Positions 14,952-60,420 of a stretch of DNA of 64,000 nt are shown here, one piece after another (the stretch's first letter is position 1; each line of letters begins with the position of its first letter). The stretch is from Zootoca vivipara. Its lineage: Eukaryota. Position numbers and translations under genes: made by a program. The stretch lies in assembly GCF_963506605.1 (NCBI RefSeq), contig NC_083276.1, positions 47,368,001 to 47,432,000 of the forward strand. Direction: 5' to 3'. The notes under the pieces are model-generated. The model was not told the origin of the DNA. It saw only the letters and a list, made by a program, of their open reading frames with translations, and ran no database searches.

Positions 14952-15210
14952 AAGGTAAAGGGTAAAGGGACCCCTGACCGTTAGGTCCAGTTGCGGCCGA
15001 CTCTGGGGTTGCGGCGCTCATCTCGCTTTATTGGCCAAGGGAGCCGGCGTTTGTCCACAGACAGCTTCTGGATCTACTTGCACTTTGATGTGCTTTCAAA
15101 CTGCTAGGTTGGCAGGAGCAGGGACTGAGCAACGGGAGCTCACCCTGTCGTGGGGATTCGAACCGCCGACCTTCTGATTGGCAAGCCCTAGGCTCTGTGG
15201 TTTAGACCAC
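14952..15210 (-). mobile_element. Sauria SINE (internally deleted)
   Basis: aaggtaaagggtaaagggacccctgacc...gggattcgaaccgccgaccttctgattggcaagccctaggctctgtgg. Confidence 0.92.
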
Positions 15211-18152: not shown

Positions 18153-18232
18153 CTGGCTGGCTGTTTACTGCTACTCTGTCTTTTGACCCTAGCTCTCAAA
18201 GCCGCTTACAAATTTAAAACAGTAGCCATTAA

Positions 18233-19148
18233 AAGGAGTACGACAAGGTTGTATATTGTCTCCCTGCTTATTTAACTTATATGCAGAATTCACCATGCGA
18301 AAGGCTGGACTAGATGAATCCCAAGCCGGAATTAAGATTGCCGGAAGAAATATCAACAACCTCAGATATGCAGATGACAAAACCTTGATGGCAGAAAGTG
18401 AGGAGGAATTAAAGAACCTTTTAACGAGGGTGAAAGAGGAGAGCGCAAAATATGGTCTGAAGCTCAACATCAAAAAAACCAAGATCATGGCCACTGGTCC
18501 CATCACCTCCTGGCAAATAGAAGGGGAAGAAATGGAGGCAGTGAGAGATTTTACTTTCTTGGGCTCCTTGATCACTGCAGATGGTGACAGCAGTCACGAA
18601 ATTAAAAGACGCCTGCTTCTTGGGAGAAAAGCAATGACAAACCTAGACAGCATCTTAAAAAGCAGAGACATCACCTTGCCGACAAAGGTCCATATAATTA
18701 AAGGTATGGTTTTCCCAGTAGTGATGTATGGAAGTGAGAGCTGGACCATAAAGAAGGCTGATCGCCGAAGAATTGATGCTTTTGAATTGTGGTGCTGGGG
18801 GAGACTCTTGAGAGTCCCATGGACTGCAAGAAGATCAAACCTATCCATTCTTAAGGAAATCAGCCCTGAGTGCTCCCTGGAAGGACAGATCGTGAAGCTG
18901 AGGCTCCAATACTTTGGCCACCTCATGAGAAGAGAAGACTCCCTGGAAAAGACCCTGATGTTGGGAAAAATTGAGGGCACAAGGAGAAGGGGACGACAGA
19001 GGACGAGATGGTTGGACAGTGTTCTCGAAGCTACGAACATGAGTTTGACCAAACTGCGGGAGGCAGTGGAAGACAGGAGTGCCTGGCGTGCTATGGTCCA
19101 TGGGGTCACGAAGAGTCAGACACGACTAAATGACTAAACAACAACAAC
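18233..19148 (+). mobile_element. BovB (RTE) LINE, 5'-truncated
   Basis: 293-aa ORF with LRYADD, near-identical to the 3' end of 55102-58134; (CAA)n tail; duplication agccattaa (18224-18232, 19149-19157). Confidence 0.97.
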
Positions 19149-31510: not shown

Positions 31511-32483
31511 AAAATTGCTCTCGGCTTGGCTCTCGGCTTGAAAAAATTTTTTTTAAGTGCGGGATGGCCATGCTGATCCCCAGACCTTTCGCGGGCCGGA
31601 TTGGAAGGCCAATTGGGCCGCATCCGGCCCGCGGGCCGTAGTCTGGGGACCCCTGTTCTAAGATCAAACAGATTGCACACACATTAGCAGTTGTAGAAGT
31701 TAATCTGCTACTACAATTATACTGCCTGAGTTCAACTGTGCTCCAGCAATGTCAAGGTTGTGCACATTTATCCAATGAAGAAAAGGGCATTGCGATTTAC
31801 CACTGCAATTTATCTTTGTGTGAGTAGAGCACACAGCTATCAGTACTAAGCGTCACAAACCAAACCAGAAAAGGCTGAGGTCATTCCATGACCGGATATC
31901 ACAACGTTGAGGATAGGCAGGAATTAAAACCCAACCTGCCATCTCCAGCTTGCATAAAACTCTAAAGCTTTTGGTACAATGCAAACAAAAACTTCTGGTC
32001 TGCCATGCCTGATTTAGGTTTGGATGTTTAACAAATGCAGAAATAAAGTGGATCCAGCTGAACTTGTATTACAAATTCTTCATTCCTCATAAAGTTGCCT
32101 TCCTGGAACACAAAAAGCACTCAACAGGCACACCAGCACAATAAATTGGGTGATTAAAACTTTTTCAGGTGTTACTTGGAATTGACTGGCATAACACAAT
32201 CAATATACAATTTTGATGTTTCCTAACGAAAGGAACAAACAATTCAGTAGCAAAATGGAGAATACTGATAGTGGATACTAGGAATGAAGCAATTTGAAAT
32301 ATCCTATCAAATGATGGCTAGCGCAATAAATGTCTATGATGATGATTTCCTATCAATATAGTTTGTTCATCTAGTAAGTTTTCTTTCATGTGTTAAAATT
32401 ATTGTTTTAACTTGGGTGGGTGCTGTTTTATTTGGAGACTCGGGTTGTTTATAATTGTTTTCAAATGTTATATGTTAATTTGG

Positions 32484-32703
32484 CCACCTCATGAGAAGAC
32501 TCCCTGGAAAAGACCCTGATGTTGGGAAAGATTGAGGGCACAAGGAGAAGGGGACGACAGAGGATGAGATGGTTGGACAGTGTTCTCGAAGCTACTAGCA
32601 TGAGTTTGACCAAACTGCGGGAGGCAGTGGAAGACAGGAGTGCCTGGCATGCTCTGGTCCATGGGGTCACGAAAAGTCGGACACAACTAAACGACTAAAC
32701 AAC
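32484..32703 (+). mobile_element. BovB 3' fragment inserted in an older LINE tail
   Basis: ccacctcatgagaagactccctgg...aactaaacgactaaacaac; duplication atgttaatttgg (32472-32483, 32704-32715). Confidence 0.93.
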
Positions 32704-33095
32704 ATGTTAATTTGGATTTTTGTATTTGTGGACTGGAGTATTTTTAAGGGCTTTTGTTGGGGATTGTATTGTTTATACATTACTACTGTTGATTGTTTGA
32801 TTATTTTTATTATGTATTTTCTGCTTTGTATATTGTAACTTTGTGTTGCGAACCACCCTGAGACCTATGGGTATAGGGTGGTCTACAAACTGAATCAATA
32901 ATAAAATAATAAATAATAAAATAATAATGATACATATATTTTATGGTGTCAGTTAACTCTGTTAGGGCTGCTTAAGACATTACATCTGGGTGTGGGCATT
33001 AACCTTATACACGTTCCCCTCCTTCCAACCCCTCTTTGTGCATAGAAAGTAAGGCCTGGAAATACTGAAGATAATATTCTTTTTAAAGACTACAT

Positions 33096-53678: not shown

Positions 53679-54236
53679 ATCAAACTTACCCCCCAAAAAA
53701 ATACCTGTGTAAATTCTAGTTCTCTCTTTACCTATTTTGGTTTAGCTTCCCCAGAATGTCAAATGTGGATTAAATGTCAATACAGATATGGTCTCAAGTT
53801 CATCTTCTTTACTATTAATAAGACAACTGTAAAATTTAAAGTAGTTACTTAACTAACATGTAACATGAGATATAAACCTGCTTTATCTACTCGTCTGGAA
53901 AGTTGTCTTTGATCAACTAGAATTATCCCTGGGCTGGGGAGCTGACTCTTCTTTCGGCACCCTTGAGATAGTAATATTTCTGTTCCTACTTGCAAGTCAA
54001 CTTATATTTCATAACGTGACATGTAAATTCTTTCCATTAAACTTTCCATTTTTGAGACTAGGTTCTTCACACACAAAGAATATTCTTGTGGCTATCACTA
54101 CAAGGCTATCACTACAAGGTTATTTTTAAAACAAAACAAAACAAAACACCTTCCAGCTTTTCCAGAGGTATTGGTTTTGACATTTGCAGCTTCAAAGAGC
54201 TGTAGGCGTCAGAATACGCCACCCCAATCTCCAAGC

Positions 54237-54750
54237 TGTGTGAAATTCCAGAGTTCCCAGGTTTTTACTCAGGGTCTGTATTTCCTATTGGAAATGAAGC
54301 ACAGTGGAGACTGTGATGTCTTTATGATATATATATATAGTTTATTAACACATATATACAACCTGAGCCTGCGATGGAGAGGCTCCCAGCATTACACTCC
54401 AAGAGGGTCTGTCTTCTCTCATAGCTACAGCCTTGGATTCAAACAGAAATCAAACATGCTCTAAATTAAAATGTGGCTCTGGTCCTCTCTCCAGCTTGCT
54501 GTATTTTACAGCAACATCATTGCAAAAAAAAAAAAAACCCTAAGCTCTCCACTCTGCTTCAAAGAGTCTCTTCCTGTCTTCTGCCTGACTCAGAGCTGGA
54601 GGAGGGGCCTCTCCCATTTTTTGTCTGGCACAGTCCTTGCCTTCTTAATGGTCCTTCCCGTTGCCCACTTTTAATGACCCATCTCTCCAGGCAATTACTT
54701 CATCAGGATGCCAGTCTGTCTTATATTTTAACATGGCTTATATTTTAACA
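54237..54750 (-). mobile_element. possible solo LTR
   Basis: TG...AACA ends, minus-strand AATAAA (tttatt near 54340), LTR-like composition; boundaries and target duplication unresolved. Confidence 0.35.
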
Positions 54751-54921
54751 TTTAATGGGTAATGGGGTAGGTCTGGCACCCACAAAGTCATAGCAATACT
54801 CTAAAAGCATGCAATCTTTAACACCCAATGGCAGAGCTAAAAACTGAGTTGTTGGTTTCCCTTGTGTATCTTTAGGGAAGGAAGGAAGGATCATCTTTTG
54901 TCCTCCTTTACTATGTTTTAT

Positions 54922-55050
54922 CCCCTTCATGGATCAATGCCTTGTCGTGGCGAAGGGGCTTGAATAACTCAGAGAAGCTATGAGCTATGCCATGCAGGGC
55001 CACCCAAGATGGACAGGTCATAGTGGAGAGTTTTGACTAAACGTGATCCA
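54922..55050 (+). ncRNA. HDV-like ribozyme fold at the BovB 5' end
   Basis: P1 ccccttc/gaagggg, P2 tggatca/tgatcca, P3 gcc/ggc, L3 ttgtcgt, single G-C P1.1 pair, J4/2 gaCtaa. Confidence 0.7.
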
Positions 55051-55101
55051 CCTGGAGAAGGAACTGGCAAGCCACTCCAGTAACCCTGCCAAGAAAACTC
55101 C

Positions 55102-58100
55102 ATGGACAAAGACAACAGGCATATAAAAGTTATTACGCTGGAAGATGAGCCCCTCAGGTCGGAAGGCGTCCAACATGCTACTGAGGAAGAGCGGAGGACA
55201 AGTACAAGTAGATTCAGAGCTGATGAAGCGGCTGGGCCAAAGCCGAAAGGACGCTCAGTTGCGGATATGCCTGGAAGCGAAAGGAAAGTCCGATGCTGTA
55301 AAGAAAAATATTGCATAGGAACCTGGAATGTAAGAACCATGAGTGGAGGTAAGCTGGATGTGGTCAAAAATGAGATGACAAGAATAAATATCGACATCCT
55401 GGGCATCAGTGAACTAAAATGGAAGGGAATGGGCGAATTCAGTTCGGATGACTATCATATCTACTACTGTGGGCAAGAATCCTGTAGCAGAAATGGAGTG
55501 GCCCTCATAGTCAATAAAAGAGTGGCAAAAGCTGTAATGGGATGCAATCTCAAAAATGACAGAATGATCTCGATACAAATCCAAGGCAGACCTTTTAACA
55601 TCACAGTAATCCAAGTTTATGCACCAACTACCGGTGCTGAAGAAAGTGAAATTGACCAATTCTATGAAGACCTACAACACCTTCTAGAAATGACACCAAA
55701 GAAGGATGTTCTTCTCATTACAGGGGACTGGAATGCTAAAGTAGGGAATCAAGAGATAAAAGGAACAACTGGCAAGTTTGGCCTTGGAGTTCAAAATGAA
55801 GCAGGGCAAAGGCTAATAGAGTTCTGTCAAGAGAACAAGCTGGTCATCACAAACACTCTATTCCAACAACACAAGAGACGACTCTACACATGGATATCAC
55901 CAAATGGACAGCATCGAAATCAGATTGATTATATTCTCTGCAGCCAAAGATGGAGAAGCTCTATACAGTCAGCAAAAACAAGACCTGGAGCTGACTGTAA
56001 CTCAGATCATCAGCTTCTTATAGCAAAATTCCAGCTTAAACTGAAGAAAGTAGGAAAAACCACTGGGCCAGTAAGATACAATCTGAATCAAATCCCTTAT
56101 GAATACACAGTGGAAGTGAGGAACAGGTTTAAGGATTTAGATTTGGTGGACAGAGTGCCTGAAGAACTATGGATGGAGGCTCGTAACATTATACAGGAGG
56201 CAGCAATGAAAACCATCCCAAGGAAAAGGAAATGCAAGAAAGCAAAATGGCTGTCCAACGAGGCCTTACAAATAGCAGAGGAGAGGAGGCAAGCAAAATG
56301 CAAGGGAGATAGGGAAAGATACAGGAAACTGAATGCAGATTTCCAAAAAACAGCAAGGAGAGACAAGAGGGTCTTCTTAAATGAGCAATGCAAAGAAATA
56401 GAGGAAAACAATAGAATGGGGAAAACCAGAGATCTGTTCAAGAAAATTGGAGATATGAAAGGAACATTTCGTACAAAGATTACCATAATCAAGGACAAAA
56501 GTGGTAAGGACCTAACAGAAGCAGAAGACATCAAGAAGAGGTGGCAAGAATACACAGAGGAATTATACCAGAAAGATATGGAGGTCTCGTACACCTCAGG
56601 TAGTGTGGTTGCTGACCTTGAGCCAGACATCTTGGAGAGTGAAGTCAAATGGGCCTTAGAAAGCATTGCTAATAACAAGGCCAGTGGAAGTGATGATATT
56701 CCAGCTGAACTGTTTAAAATTTTAAAAGATGATGCTGTTAAGGTGCTACACCCAATATGCCAGCAAGTTTGGAAAACTCAGCAATGGCCAGAGGATTGGA
56801 GAAGATCAGTCTACATCCCAATTCCAAAGAAGGGCAGTGCCAAAGAATGCTGCAACTACCGCACAATTGCGCTCATTTCACACGCTAGCAAGGTTATGCT
56901 TAAAATTCTACAAGGCAGGCTTAGGCAGTATGTGGACCGAGAACTCCCAGAAGTGCAAGCTGGATTTCGAAAGGGCAGAGGAACCAGAGACCAAATAGCA
57001 AACATGCGCTGGATTATGGAGAAAGCTAGAGAGTTCCAGAAAAACGTCTACTTCTGCTTCATTGACTATGCAAAAGCCTTTGACTGTGTCGACCACAGCA
57101 AACTATGGCAAGTTCTTAAAGAAATGGGAGTGCCTGATCACCTCATCTGTCTCCTGAGAAATCTCTATGTGGGACAAGAAGCTACAGTTAGAACTGGATA
57201 TGGAACAACTGATTGGTTCAAAATTGGGAAAGGAGTACGACAAGGTTGTATATTGTCTCCCTGCTTATTTAACTTATATGCAGAATTCATCATGCGAAAG
57301 GCTGGACTAGATGAATCCCAAGCCGGAATTAAGATTGCCGGAAGAAATATCAACAACCTCAGATATGCAGATGACACAACCTTGATGGCAGAAAGCGAGG
57401 AGGAATTAAAGAACCTTTTAATGAGGGTGAAAGAGGAGAGCGCAAAATATGGTCTGAAGCTCAACATCAAAAAAACCAAGATCATGGCCACTGGTCCCAT
57501 CACCTCCTGGCAAATAGAAGGGGAAGAAATGGAGGCAGTGAGAGATTTTACTTTCTTGGGTTCCTTGATCACTGCAGATGGTGACAGCAGTCACGAAATT
57601 AAAAGACGCCTGCTTCTTGGGAGAAAAGCAATGACAAACCTAGACAGCATCTTAAAAAGCAGAGACATCACCTTGCCGACAAAGGTCCGTATAGTTAAAG
57701 CTATGGTTTTCCCAGTAGTGATGTATGGAAGTGAGAGTTGGACCATAAAGAAGGCTGATCGCCGAAGAATTGATGCTTTTGAATTATGGTGCTGGAGGAG
57801 ACTCTTGAGAGTCCCATGGACTGCAAGAAGATCAAACCTATCCATTCTTAAGGAAATCAGCCCTGAGTGCTCCCTGGAAGGACAGATCGTGAAGCTGAGG
57901 CTCCAATACTTTGGCCACCTCATGAGAAGAGAAGAATCCTTGGAAAAGACCCTGATGTTGGGAAAGATTGAGGGCACTAGGAGAAGGGGACGACAGAGGA
58001 CAAGATGGTTGGACAGTGTTCTCGAAGCTACGAACATGAGTTTGACCAAACTGCGGGAGGCAGTGCAAGACAGGAGTGCCTGGCGTGCTCTGGTCCATGG

Positions 58101-58134
58101 GGTCACGAAGAGTCGGACACGACTAAACGACTAA
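55102..58134 (+). CDS. BovB APE endonuclease-reverse transcriptase, intact, 1010 aa
   Basis: Endonuclease motifs GTWNVRT, ILGISE, VYAPT, GDWNAK, NQIDYI, SDH; RT motifs NYRTIALIS, QAGFR, FIDYAKAFD, GVRQGCILSP, LRYADD, FLGS. Confidence 0.98.
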   Translation: MDKDNRHIKVITLEDEPLRSEGVQHATEEERRTSTSRFRADEAAGPKPKGRSVADMPGSERKVRCCKEKYCIGTWNVRTMSGGKLDVVKNEMTRINIDILGISELKWKGMGEFSSDDYHIYYCGQESCSRNGVALIVNKRVAKAVMGCNLKNDRMISIQIQGRPFNITVIQVYAPTTGAEESEIDQFYEDLQHLLEMTPKKDVLLITGDWNAKVGNQEIKGTTGKFGLGVQNEAGQRLIEFCQENKLVITNTLFQQHKRRLYTWISPNGQHRNQIDYILCSQRWRSSIQSAKTRPGADCNSDHQLLIAKFQLKLKKVGKTTGPVRYNLNQIPYEYTVEVRNRFKDLDLVDRVPEELWMEARNIIQEAAMKTIPRKRKCKKAKWLSNEALQIAEERRQAKCKGDRERYRKLNADFQKTARRDKRVFLNEQCKEIEENNRMGKTRDLFKKIGDMKGTFRTKITIIKDKSGKDLTEAEDIKKRWQEYTEELYQKDMEVSYTSGSVVADLEPDILESEVKWALESIANNKASGSDDIPAELFKILKDDAVKVLHPICQQVWKTQQWPEDWRRSVYIPIPKKGSAKECCNYRTIALISHASKVMLKILQGRLRQYVDRELPEVQAGFRKGRGTRDQIANMRWIMEKAREFQKNVYFCFIDYAKAFDCVDHSKLWQVLKEMGVPDHLICLLRNLYVGQEATVRTGYGTTDWFKIGKGVRQGCILSPCLFNLYAEFIMRKAGLDESQAGIKIAGRNINNLRYADDTTLMAESEEELKNLLMRVKEESAKYGLKLNIKKTKIMATGPITSWQIEGEEMEAVRDFTFLGSLITADGDSSHEIKRRLLLGRKAMTNLDSILKSRDITLPTKVRIVKAMVFPVVMYGSESWTIKKADRRRIDAFELWCWRRLLRVPWTARRSNLSILKEISPECSLEGQIVKLRLQYFGHLMRREESLEKTLMLGKIEGTRRRGRQRTRWLDSVLEATNMSLTKLREAVQDRSAWRALVHGVTKSRTRLND

Positions 58135-60053
58135 ACAACAACTATGTTTTATGCTGTTAGCTTCTACCTGATCTTTTATACCCCACCGATCCTTTAGCAA
58201 AGGTTGCTGCTAAATCTGTTTAATTTTTCTTACATTTATATGTACAGTATTAGTACCACACCTTCATTAATGATCCAGATAAGGAGCCGGTATCAGGCTA
58301 CAGGAGATTTATACCTTCTCTAGCCAAATCTCTCTTTGCATGGTAATGATTTAAGTACTTGACACCACATTTTAGTACAAATAAATAAATAAATAAATAC
58401 ATGGCTTCAACCATTATTTTGACAAAATGTGTGTGACTATACAGATTGCCCTCCCTGTCTTTAGCCATGTGGACCCATTTTTGCAATTCTATGCATCATT
58501 ACTCAGCAGTAAGTCTGACATCCATTGAGTTCAATGGGATGTACACTCTAGGAATTGTGCATGGGATTGCTGTAGTAGAGAAATAAAATGGTACACATGT
58601 GGAATATACTCCAGCAAAGAGAAAGACTATTAAATATCCATCTAACATTTTTAAAAAGACAGTAAAAATAACCCATATTGAAATATAATTTCAACATCTA
58701 ACAAAAGTAAAGTTCCTGATGCTGAGCAACAGAAGGAAAATGATACTGATATTTCCCCTCACTATTTAATTAAGAACAATAAAATCTCAATGTGTTTGAG
58801 ATTTTAACTGCCCCCACAGCCCTCTACAGCCTCTACTATTACGTATGCAGGGCAACCAAGGTTGAGCCTGAACACAGTTCAAGCTTTCCTTAAGCAGAAA
58901 AAGCTGTTCCATTAGACATAAACAAATCTGCTGGCATGGCAATAGCAGTCCTGCTATAATTAACAGAGGCAGATGTAAGAACATGAGAAAATCTTCAAGC
59001 AAGAGATAAATATGAAAAATGCAGAAAGTGCTCTGGAGAAATCCACTTTCTGCCTCTTCACAGTTAGTTCCAGCATCAGGGAATGTTTCTAAAATCAACA
59101 CAATGGCCAAATCTGTTTTTAATGGCAGGGCTCCCTACCACCACACACACTCACACACAACATCAAGAGCACTCCTTCAAACTGGCTGACTGTAACTCTT
59201 GTTGCCTTGCTTTTCACTTAAGAATTCAGCACAAGGTAATGCTTTGCTTCACTACGCTCCTTCACTCTAGCTTTTCCCATGAGAAACTTGGTAAGGGTTT
59301 CTTAAGTACATAGATAACAGTGTAGTAAGGGAAAGATGCACACTTCCCAAAAAAGTTATCTTATCGTATGTAAAGTATACACACTAATTAAAAAAACACA
59401 ATGAAAAGTGCTGACATGCACTTTGCAAGGCAAATTTTCCCATATTACTAGTCATCTTTTGAGAAGTGTGACATTATGGATCTAAGAATACAAGGATTAA
59501 TTTCATTCAACTGCATGGGAAATCTGAAATGCATGACAAGGGGTGGAATTCAATGACACGCTATCAGCACAAGAATTGCAGCCTGCAAGATGGAAGGACC
59601 CCCCTACTCACCCTGTGTATTGTTCTGGCGGTTCTCCTCACACACCCCAAAGCCAGTTTTGGAGGGTGTGAGTACGGGGGAAAGAGGGGGGGAAAGCTCC
59701 ATTGCGCAAGCAGAAGTCCTTGTGCAGGGCTTGTGCTGATAGAACGCATTAGGTGAGTCCTGCTCAAGGTAATTTGAACTGAAACAATAGCAAATGATGT
59801 TAGATAACCTCTGGATTTTAGTCTTGCCATATACCTTATTCACTCTGCAATGCATAAATCTAGATGGTGGGCATTAGAGAACAAAAAGGTCATCTCGAGG
59901 AATTCAGACACTCTTCTGCAAACACAAGTTGAAGATGAGACTGATGGGTGTTATAGCCTAAAATACCTGGAAGACACCAAGTTAGGGAAGGCTGGTCCAT
60001 ATTATGTTGCCTGTGGCTGGTCCATGGGCATTGCCCAGCAATATATGAGTTGG

Positions 60054-60420
60054 TGCTGGAGTTGGTGCTGGAGGAGACTCTTGAGAGTCCCATGGACTGC
60101 AAGAAGATCAAACCTATCCATTCTGAAGGAAATCAGCCCTGAGTGCTCCCTGGAAGGACAGATCGTGAAGCTGAGGCTCCAATACTTTGGCCACCTCATG
60201 AGAAGAGAAGAATCCTTGGAAAAGACCTTGATGTTGGGAAAGATGGAGGGCACTAGGAGAAGGGGACGACAGAGGACGAGATGGTTGGACAGTGTTTTCG
60301 AAGCTACGAACATGAGTTTGACCAAACTGCGGGAGGCAGTGGAAGACAGGAGTGCCTGGCGTGCTATGGTCCATGGGGTCACGAAGAGTCGGACACGACT
60401 AAACGACTAAACAACAACAA
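60054..60420 (+). mobile_element. BovB 3' fragment
   Basis: WCWRRLLRVPW...KSRTRLND* and a (CAA)n tail; duplication atatgagttgg (60043-60053, 60421-60431). Confidence 0.95.

Follow-up and report, generated by a model that had tools for sequence, protein, structure and literature searches.

The window analysed here, a stretch of 64,000 nucleotides from the genome of Zootoca vivipara, contains on its forward strand a full-length BovB LINE flanked by a target site duplication (TSD) (Table 1). Its assignment to BovB is based on the single ORF encoding an AP endonuclease and a reverse transcriptase, the length of ca. 3.2 kb, the short-repeat tail, and the TSD. The ORF protein is 94% identical to a Podarcis BovB protein (P0001), and the element's 5' end is almost identical to Podarcis Bov-B as aligned in Fig. 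S3 of PMC13295347. The family is young, since an internal 201-base probe (element nt 139 to 339) detected 39 further identical copies in the genome. Three 5'-truncated BovB 3' fragments lie on the same strand of the window (18232-19143, 32476-32704, and 60063-60416) and are 93 to 98% identical to the full-length copy, while the segment 30001-32000 is GC-rich (60% versus ca. 39% elsewhere) and is possibly a CpG island. BovB-like sequence was also present in several bacterial assemblies and protein records (L210 to L223; P0017, P0019, and P0050), most likely through contamination. Two patterns run against the genome found neither an older BovB nor a second RTE family with other 5' motifs.

Table 1. 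Coordinates of the BovB element and of its proposed 5' structure in the window
Feature	Position	Strand	Remarks
TSD, 5' copy, 12 bp	54910..54921	+	matches 58141-58152
Full-length BovB (RTE-clade) LINE, 3219 nt	54922..58140	+	young family, copies ~99% identical
P1 5' strand; C54922 is nt 1; predicted cleavage between 54921 and 54922	54922..54928	+	pairs checked; covariation with L133
P2 5' strand (54930-54936), then A54937 and U54938	54930..54938	+	
P3 (3 bp: 54939-54941/54949-54951) with 7-nt L3 (54942-54948)	54939..54951	+	
P1 3' strand (54952-54958) and J1/4	54952..54960	+	
Long P4 domain	54961..55036	+	predicted -21.4 kcal/mol folded alone
J4/2 with candidate catalytic C55037 (C-N-A-A), and P2 3' strand (55044-55050)	55037..55050	+	
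Conserved block between putative ribozyme and start codon	55055..55096	+	L133, L135, L140, L141, L142, L150, L206
5' strand of predicted 11-bp long-range helix; holds first ORF ATG (55102)	55097..55107	+	
Intact single ORF (AP endonuclease, reverse transcriptase), 1010 aa counted from first ATG	55102..58134	+	
Hot spot where inverted heads of sister copies end (element nt 189-208)	55110..55129	+	
3' strand of predicted 11-bp long-range helix	58093..58103	+	
TSD, 3' copy, after short CAA-repeat tail	58141..58152	+	

The 12-bp TSD directly adjoins C54922, so that this base is nt 1 of the element and, as a preliminary description of the locus had claimed, also nt 1 of a fold resembling the hepatitis delta virus (HDV) ribozyme. 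All the pairings listed there are present in the sequence: P1 is made of seven Watson-Crick pairs out of seven, P2 has seven of its seven pairs, and P3 all three. The L3 pattern, the swapped P1.1 pair (G54944 opposite C54959), and the candidate catalytic C55037 were likewise right in both coordinates and letters. In P1.1, U54943 faces U54960, and in the window copy P1, P2, P3, P1.1, and P4 occur in the right order for a nested double pseudoknot. Within L3, the positions of U54942 and G54947 suit the conserved U-G trans wobble and that of G54944 suits P1.1, an assignment of roles that comes partly from the established HDV structure. It also draws on the HDV-like ribozymes described in PMC3774820. 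The U...C-G of L3, which provides the trans U-G wobble and the C-G pair closing P3, was invariant in four aligned examples, and C55037 with the following N-A-A of J4/2 was unchanged in 88 near-identical copies. The register of C55037 relative to P2 is one that we infer, two extra bases preceding P2; the adjacent C55038 was discarded as the catalytic base, given that the youngest subfamily has a U there. Two bases that the preliminary description had overlooked, A54937 and U54938, separate P2 from P3 in the young subfamily, and U54938 may pair with A55041. The caveat raised there about position 1 holds. The nt-1 pair of P1 is C54922-G54958 and thus departs from the purine-at-1 feature (usually G-U) of HDV-like ribozymes, and the same C-G recurs in an RTE relative, L133 (see below). 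J1/2 is the single base A54929 if all P2 pairs form and 2 to 3 nt if the outer ones fray; a linker of some 3 nt or more is what HDV-like ribozymes need to connect P1 with P2.

The fold was then searched for with HDV-like descriptors and Rfam models. A strict HDV descriptor had 54922 as its sole match on both strands of the window and none in 30 dinucleotide shuffles, a test that is post hoc because the descriptor had been widened after its first version missed the window copy, owing to the two bases between P2 and P3; a relaxed descriptor matched 13 times in the 30 shuffles. Rfam returned no HDV family at E<=10 for 54000-56000, nor did any curated HDV or CPEB3 model match. The nested subset P1+P3+P4 reached -35.0 against -36.5 for the best nested fold, P2 not yet added, and the z-score of the nested fold was -0.34, nested folding being uninformative for a pseudoknot. 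Near matches to the L3 motif at 15143 and 28836 in the window were judged not to be ribozyme heads.

The junction counts are based on 40 copies that an anchor at element nt 139-339 had picked out (the window copy plus the 39 others), leaving out a genome search that favoured copies with similar flanks. Most of them (31 of 40) start exactly at C1, five have their start inside the first six bases or deviate there, and four are truncated at nt 18 to 132. A further sample consisted of 60 copies taken in chromosomal order out of 2632 core matches; 30 started exactly at C1 by a crude classifier, and 18 of the other 30 were inverted heads (see below). A TSD was found for 47 of the 61 exact-start copies and abuts C1 in 44, overlapping it by a shared C in two and being spurious in one, so that the common 5' end expected for full-length copies was borne out. 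The base preceding C1 varies freely (T10 G8 C7 A6 in the 31 anchored exact-start copies) and no two of the 61 copies have more than five upstream bases in common; hence, there is no 5' transduced flank. Cleavage one base upstream of C54922 was ruled out, since base -1 is heterogeneous host sequence. No extra G was seen at C1 in any of the 47 exact-start copies with a TSD. In L074, L247, and L293, the first 14 to 22 bases are tandemly re-copied at the 5' junction, which suggests repeated template jumps at the RNA end.

Inside the fold, copies differ by subfamily. Older copies have C at 54937, which forms an eighth P2 pair with G55043 and gives an 8-bp P2 (503 exact matches in the genome), while the youngest subfamily, with A54937, has lost that pair. 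A short-P4 subfamily (at least 205 copies by exact matches) lacks 48 nt, all within P4, and keeps every core element; two further changes turn P4 mismatches into pairs and leave a short 7-bp hairpin. These copies (L245 to L264) have a compact 81-nt HDV-like fold, and 3 of the 20 examined extend to at least nt 1615. Reads labelled as another species showed near-fixed differences at 54937, where the P2 pair is restored, at 54945 in unpaired L3, at 55038 in unpaired J4/2, and at 54992 in P4. Positions 54945 and 55038 would be the L3 and J4/2 positions that vary in HDV-like ribozymes. The changes at 54937 and 54945 also appear in the Podarcis copies of the alignment given in PMC13295347 (Fig. S3).

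To look beyond Zootoca we used 115 related loci from public contigs (755,054 bases, both strands), among which L133 was the only strict descriptor match. It belongs to an RTE whose protein is 60% identical to that of the window element and 91% identical to a Rotaria protein; the fold precedes the ORF match by 362 nt, a spacing like that in the window, and its predicted start is again C1-G. Compared with the window, five of the seven P1 pairs, one of the three P3 pairs (the first), and the P1.1 pair are exchanged, the latter being U-A in L133 and C-G in L141. At 51% protein identity, L141 carries a canonical G-U/C-G version that matched the relaxed descriptor and has one P1 mismatch. Two other loci with enough upstream sequence, L150 and L206, gave no descriptor match, and most of the remaining loci, as well as the GTDB contaminant contigs, are without 5' UTRs. 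The covariation that had been anticipated for P1 and P3 is therefore present, together with that of P1.1, in a set of two informative relatives. From the copy junctions and this covariation, an HDV-like fold at the exact, common 5' end of the element is supported.

The block that follows the fold in Table 1 is conserved in RTE relatives whose protein identity is as low as 45% and is likely a protein-recognition element. No RTE relatives were found in the viral contigs or in the plasmids searched. In L153, a distant RTE (39%), inspection by eye of the region some 500 to 350 bases before the ORF match at 1838 revealed a P2-like pairing of 8 bp, a P3-like stem preceded by a single U, and a six-base J4/2 identical to that of the window, with a non-canonical loop. 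A virus record without an RTE protein match (L277, IMG/VR record G001, 112.9 kb) contains at 480-541 on the minus strand, apparently between genes, a minimal HDV-like fold with C1-G, the L3 of the window, a G-C P1.1, a perfect 7-bp P1, and no P4; it was one of 14 pattern matches.

BovB is the textbook example of a horizontally transferred LINE, and the preliminary description had suggested that a ribozyme could help explain its wide spread. The ruminant-type contig L135, 92 to 95% identical to Bos and Moschus BovB proteins, does not support this. At 330-500 it keeps both P2 arms with a compensatory change, while the P3' and P1' strands are missing and several hundred extra bases lie upstream. 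Query lengths in PMC13295347 are 3.7 to 3.9 kb for ruminant and 3.1 to 3.3 kb for squamate Bov-B (Table S4), and the cow has 365,688 ruminant BovB copies (Table S5). Since the core is missing from this one contig and the cow copies are so many, amplification after the transfer seems not to have needed it. A role of the ribozyme at the moment of transfer is possible, although speculative.

Inverted 5' segments were found in 25 of the 60 position-ordered copies, with the first ca. 200 bases head-to-head with an inverted 3' fragment. All outer breakpoints but one (at nt 233) fell at nt 189-208, whereas the inner junctions ranged from 17 nt inside to 35 nt outside nt 1 and never included a long host flank. 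The whole inverted unit was enclosed by a TSD in 15 of the 25 (five in one set and 10 of 17 in a second, one of them a simple repeat; the second set comprised 18 regions before a misplaced one was dropped), and the outer junctions of such units mostly had an overlap of 1 to 5 bases. Genome-wide, 23-base patterns gave 3431 matches at nt 164-186 versus 1920 at nt 240-262, an excess of heads that is the reverse of ordinary 5' truncation. L282, L301, L313, and L336 are examples. This is a twin-priming-like inversion, but at a fixed site, and the inverted heads show independently that the template ends at nt 1. As in L1 twin priming, the inverted 5' segment lies head-to-head with the 3' segment inside one TSD; differently from it, 24 of the 25 BovB outer breakpoints fall within 20 nt and the inverted piece reaches the RNA 5' end (for the L1 side of the comparison, see PMC4245944, where inversions were seen almost only with L1 in human cells). 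Internally deleted copies in which a 5' piece is joined directly to a 3' piece within one TSD were also seen (L280, L310, L321, L331, and L332), and a loose end at 55122 in run X24 was grouped with such bipartite forms.

Immediately upstream of the hot spot lies a segment that may pair with the other end of the element. In five of six elements (window, L133, L140, L141, L142, and L150), the 16 bases after the conserved block have their best partner within the whole element 22 to 42 bases before the ORF end; in the exception, L142, that site ranks second. The sequences differ in each element, so that the long-range helix appears, from these comparisons, to covary between the start-codon region and the ORF 3' end. 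The ATG opening the long frame is within the helix in the window, L133, L141, and L142, and outside it in L140 and L150. For this pairing, significance was reached by the local 16-nt scan only; when nt 130-210 as a whole were folded as a duplex with the 3' end, the window gave no significant result (as good in 53 of 200 shuffles). The helix and the inversion site may well be linked.

Our explanation for these observations is that the first 129 bases of the LINE would supply, from element nt 1 onwards, the helices of an HDV-like double pseudoknot and cleave themselves at 54921/54922, the predicted general acid being C55037, so that longer transcripts would give rise to a defined RNA of 3.2 kb. 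Catalysis would probably be slow, given the C1-G pair and the one-nucleotide J1/2; the folded product would presumably protect the 5' end of the RNA, and the source of the precursor transcripts is presumed as well. Once set free, the RNA is predicted to be closed by the 11-bp helix joining its start-codon region to its 3' end; nt 190-205 would thereby come to lie beside the integration site, which would account for the frequent priming of the second DNA strand at this point and for the copying of the head backwards to nt 1. We consider a BovB headed by a ribozyme, with active self-cleavage at 54921/54922, to be probable on sequence grounds, and self-cleavage from longer transcripts would be the likeliest function of the fold. 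The boundary of the insertion falls exactly, to the base, at the predicted scissile bond, and the letters of the catalytic core (U...CG in L3 and C-N-A-A) survive the exchange of helices in relatives. Tolerance is wide among R2 ribozymes according to section 16 of PMC3774820, and a P1.1 made of a Watson-Crick and a U:U pair supports fast cleavage in a crystallised HDV-like ribozyme, as described in PMC13635239.

The alternative that survives best, although we find it rather unlikely, is that the fold is kept as a structure, serving in 5' protection, translation, or protein binding, and cleaves little or not at all, while an internal promoter starting at C54922 sets the 5' end. Published data on the HDV family make the C1-G pair, the one-nucleotide J1/2, and the P2 mismatch each unfavourable for cleavage: a review calls G1 invariant and the G-U pair at the cleavage site essential (PMC8495972), the G1A change lowered CPEB3 cleavage from 92% to 3% (PMC8233481), and Agam-2-1 constructs with a one-nucleotide J1/2 showed little cleavage in the results given in PMC4908430. 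Fraying of the outer P2 pairs could lengthen J1/2. In four raw RNA runs, of which 6 to 12% each was read, no pile-up of read starts at 54922 was listed and 52, 32, 8, and 50 reads, respectively, continue upstream across the junction; these may be antisense or come from inverted-head transcripts, and, with strand and copy of origin unassigned, they were counted neither way. Uniform 5' ends would also follow from a fixed promoter start. Against a structure that does not cleave stand the retention of U...CG and C-N-A-A in relatives with exchanged helices and the coincidence, to the base, of the start with the predicted scissile bond. Capped templates often leave an extra G in L1, but none was present at the 47 TSD junctions.

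Improbable in our view is a ribozyme that was active in ancestors and is now a decaying relic in the youngest subfamily, as in ruminant BovB. A54937 indeed breaks a pair present in older and in Podarcis copies, and ruminant-type L135 has lost the core, but the A54937 subfamily, the most recent one, has retained the precise start at C1 and carries no 5' transduced flank. That complementary stretches of a 5' UTR match here by mere chance, as the missing Rfam match, the z-score, and the post hoc adjustment of the descriptor might suggest, hardly deserves consideration given the absence of strict matches in 30 shuffles and the homologous folds that L133 and L141 have at the corresponding place, with their pairs exchanged, and this covariation largely refutes it.

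Beyond the self-cleaving head, we propose tentatively, as a possibility somewhat short of an even chance, that squamate BovB RNA would be a closed RNP: an active ribozyme of a hitherto unrecognised C1-G class would make the 5' end, the covarying helix would clamp the start codon to the 3' end and switch from translation to integration, a second priming site at nt ~200 would lead to the head being routinely written backwards, and ruminant BovB would later have exchanged the ribozyme for a different 5' end.

It is not new that RTE elements carry ribozymes at their 5' ends. Ruminski et al. reportedly described, in 2011, RTE-clade LINEs headed by HDV-like ribozymes, a finding cited in PMC5786205, PMC3774820, and PMC6765202. 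The LINE clade, the place at element nt 1, the fold, and the proposed role are alike, whereas the C1-G, the G-C P1.1, and the 1-nt J1/2 of the window BovB depart from the usual consensus; the window fold would appear to work like its known counterparts while failing the purine-at-1 rule and Rfam. With the 5' ribozymes of R2 and L1Tc, as presented in PMC3774820 and PMC6765202, it has in common a ribozyme-defined 5' end of a non-LTR element and a tolerance of variable P4 and imperfect P1/P2. R2, however, is site-specific in rDNA and is described there as often cleaving in 28S, while BovB inserts genome-wide and carries the whole P1. The HDV-like ribozymes of CPEB3, Ackermannviridae, and C. briggsae (PMC13635239) resemble it in the 7-nt L3 and in a P1.1 made of a Watson-Crick plus a pyrimidine-pyrimidine pair, but their P1.1 has U:A instead of G-C, they are not described there as heads of retrotransposons, and CPEB3 has G1.

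For the same family, a 2026 study of reptilian Bov-B (PMC13295347) gives a run of cytosines at the start of full-length elements, 11- to 12-bp TSDs starting with A, and CAA tails; the terms ribozyme, inversion, and twin are absent from its main text, and ribozyme from the text of its supplement. No report of a BovB or squamate ribozyme was found in the literature searched, with the proviso that BovB may already be listed in Ruminski 2011, and, at the level of listings, none of a fixed-site inversion in RTE or BovB or of an end-to-end RTE helix.

The way in which the very short BovB 5' UTR yields full-length RNA is not settled in the literature covered. The RTE clade is already in use for RNA-only gene insertion (RTE-1_MD, in the account given in PMC13708176), and the fixed-site inversion together with the end-to-end helix suggests how the second strand might be primed in RTE elements, a model that can be put to the test. 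The natural 81-nt version with a short P4 is a compact form of the fold, ready for study. If the fold cleaves, there would be exceptions in nature to the rule of a purine at nt 1 which escape Rfam and the standard descriptors, and lizards would carry thousands of ribozyme copies, with 2632 exact core matches in the Zootoca genome.
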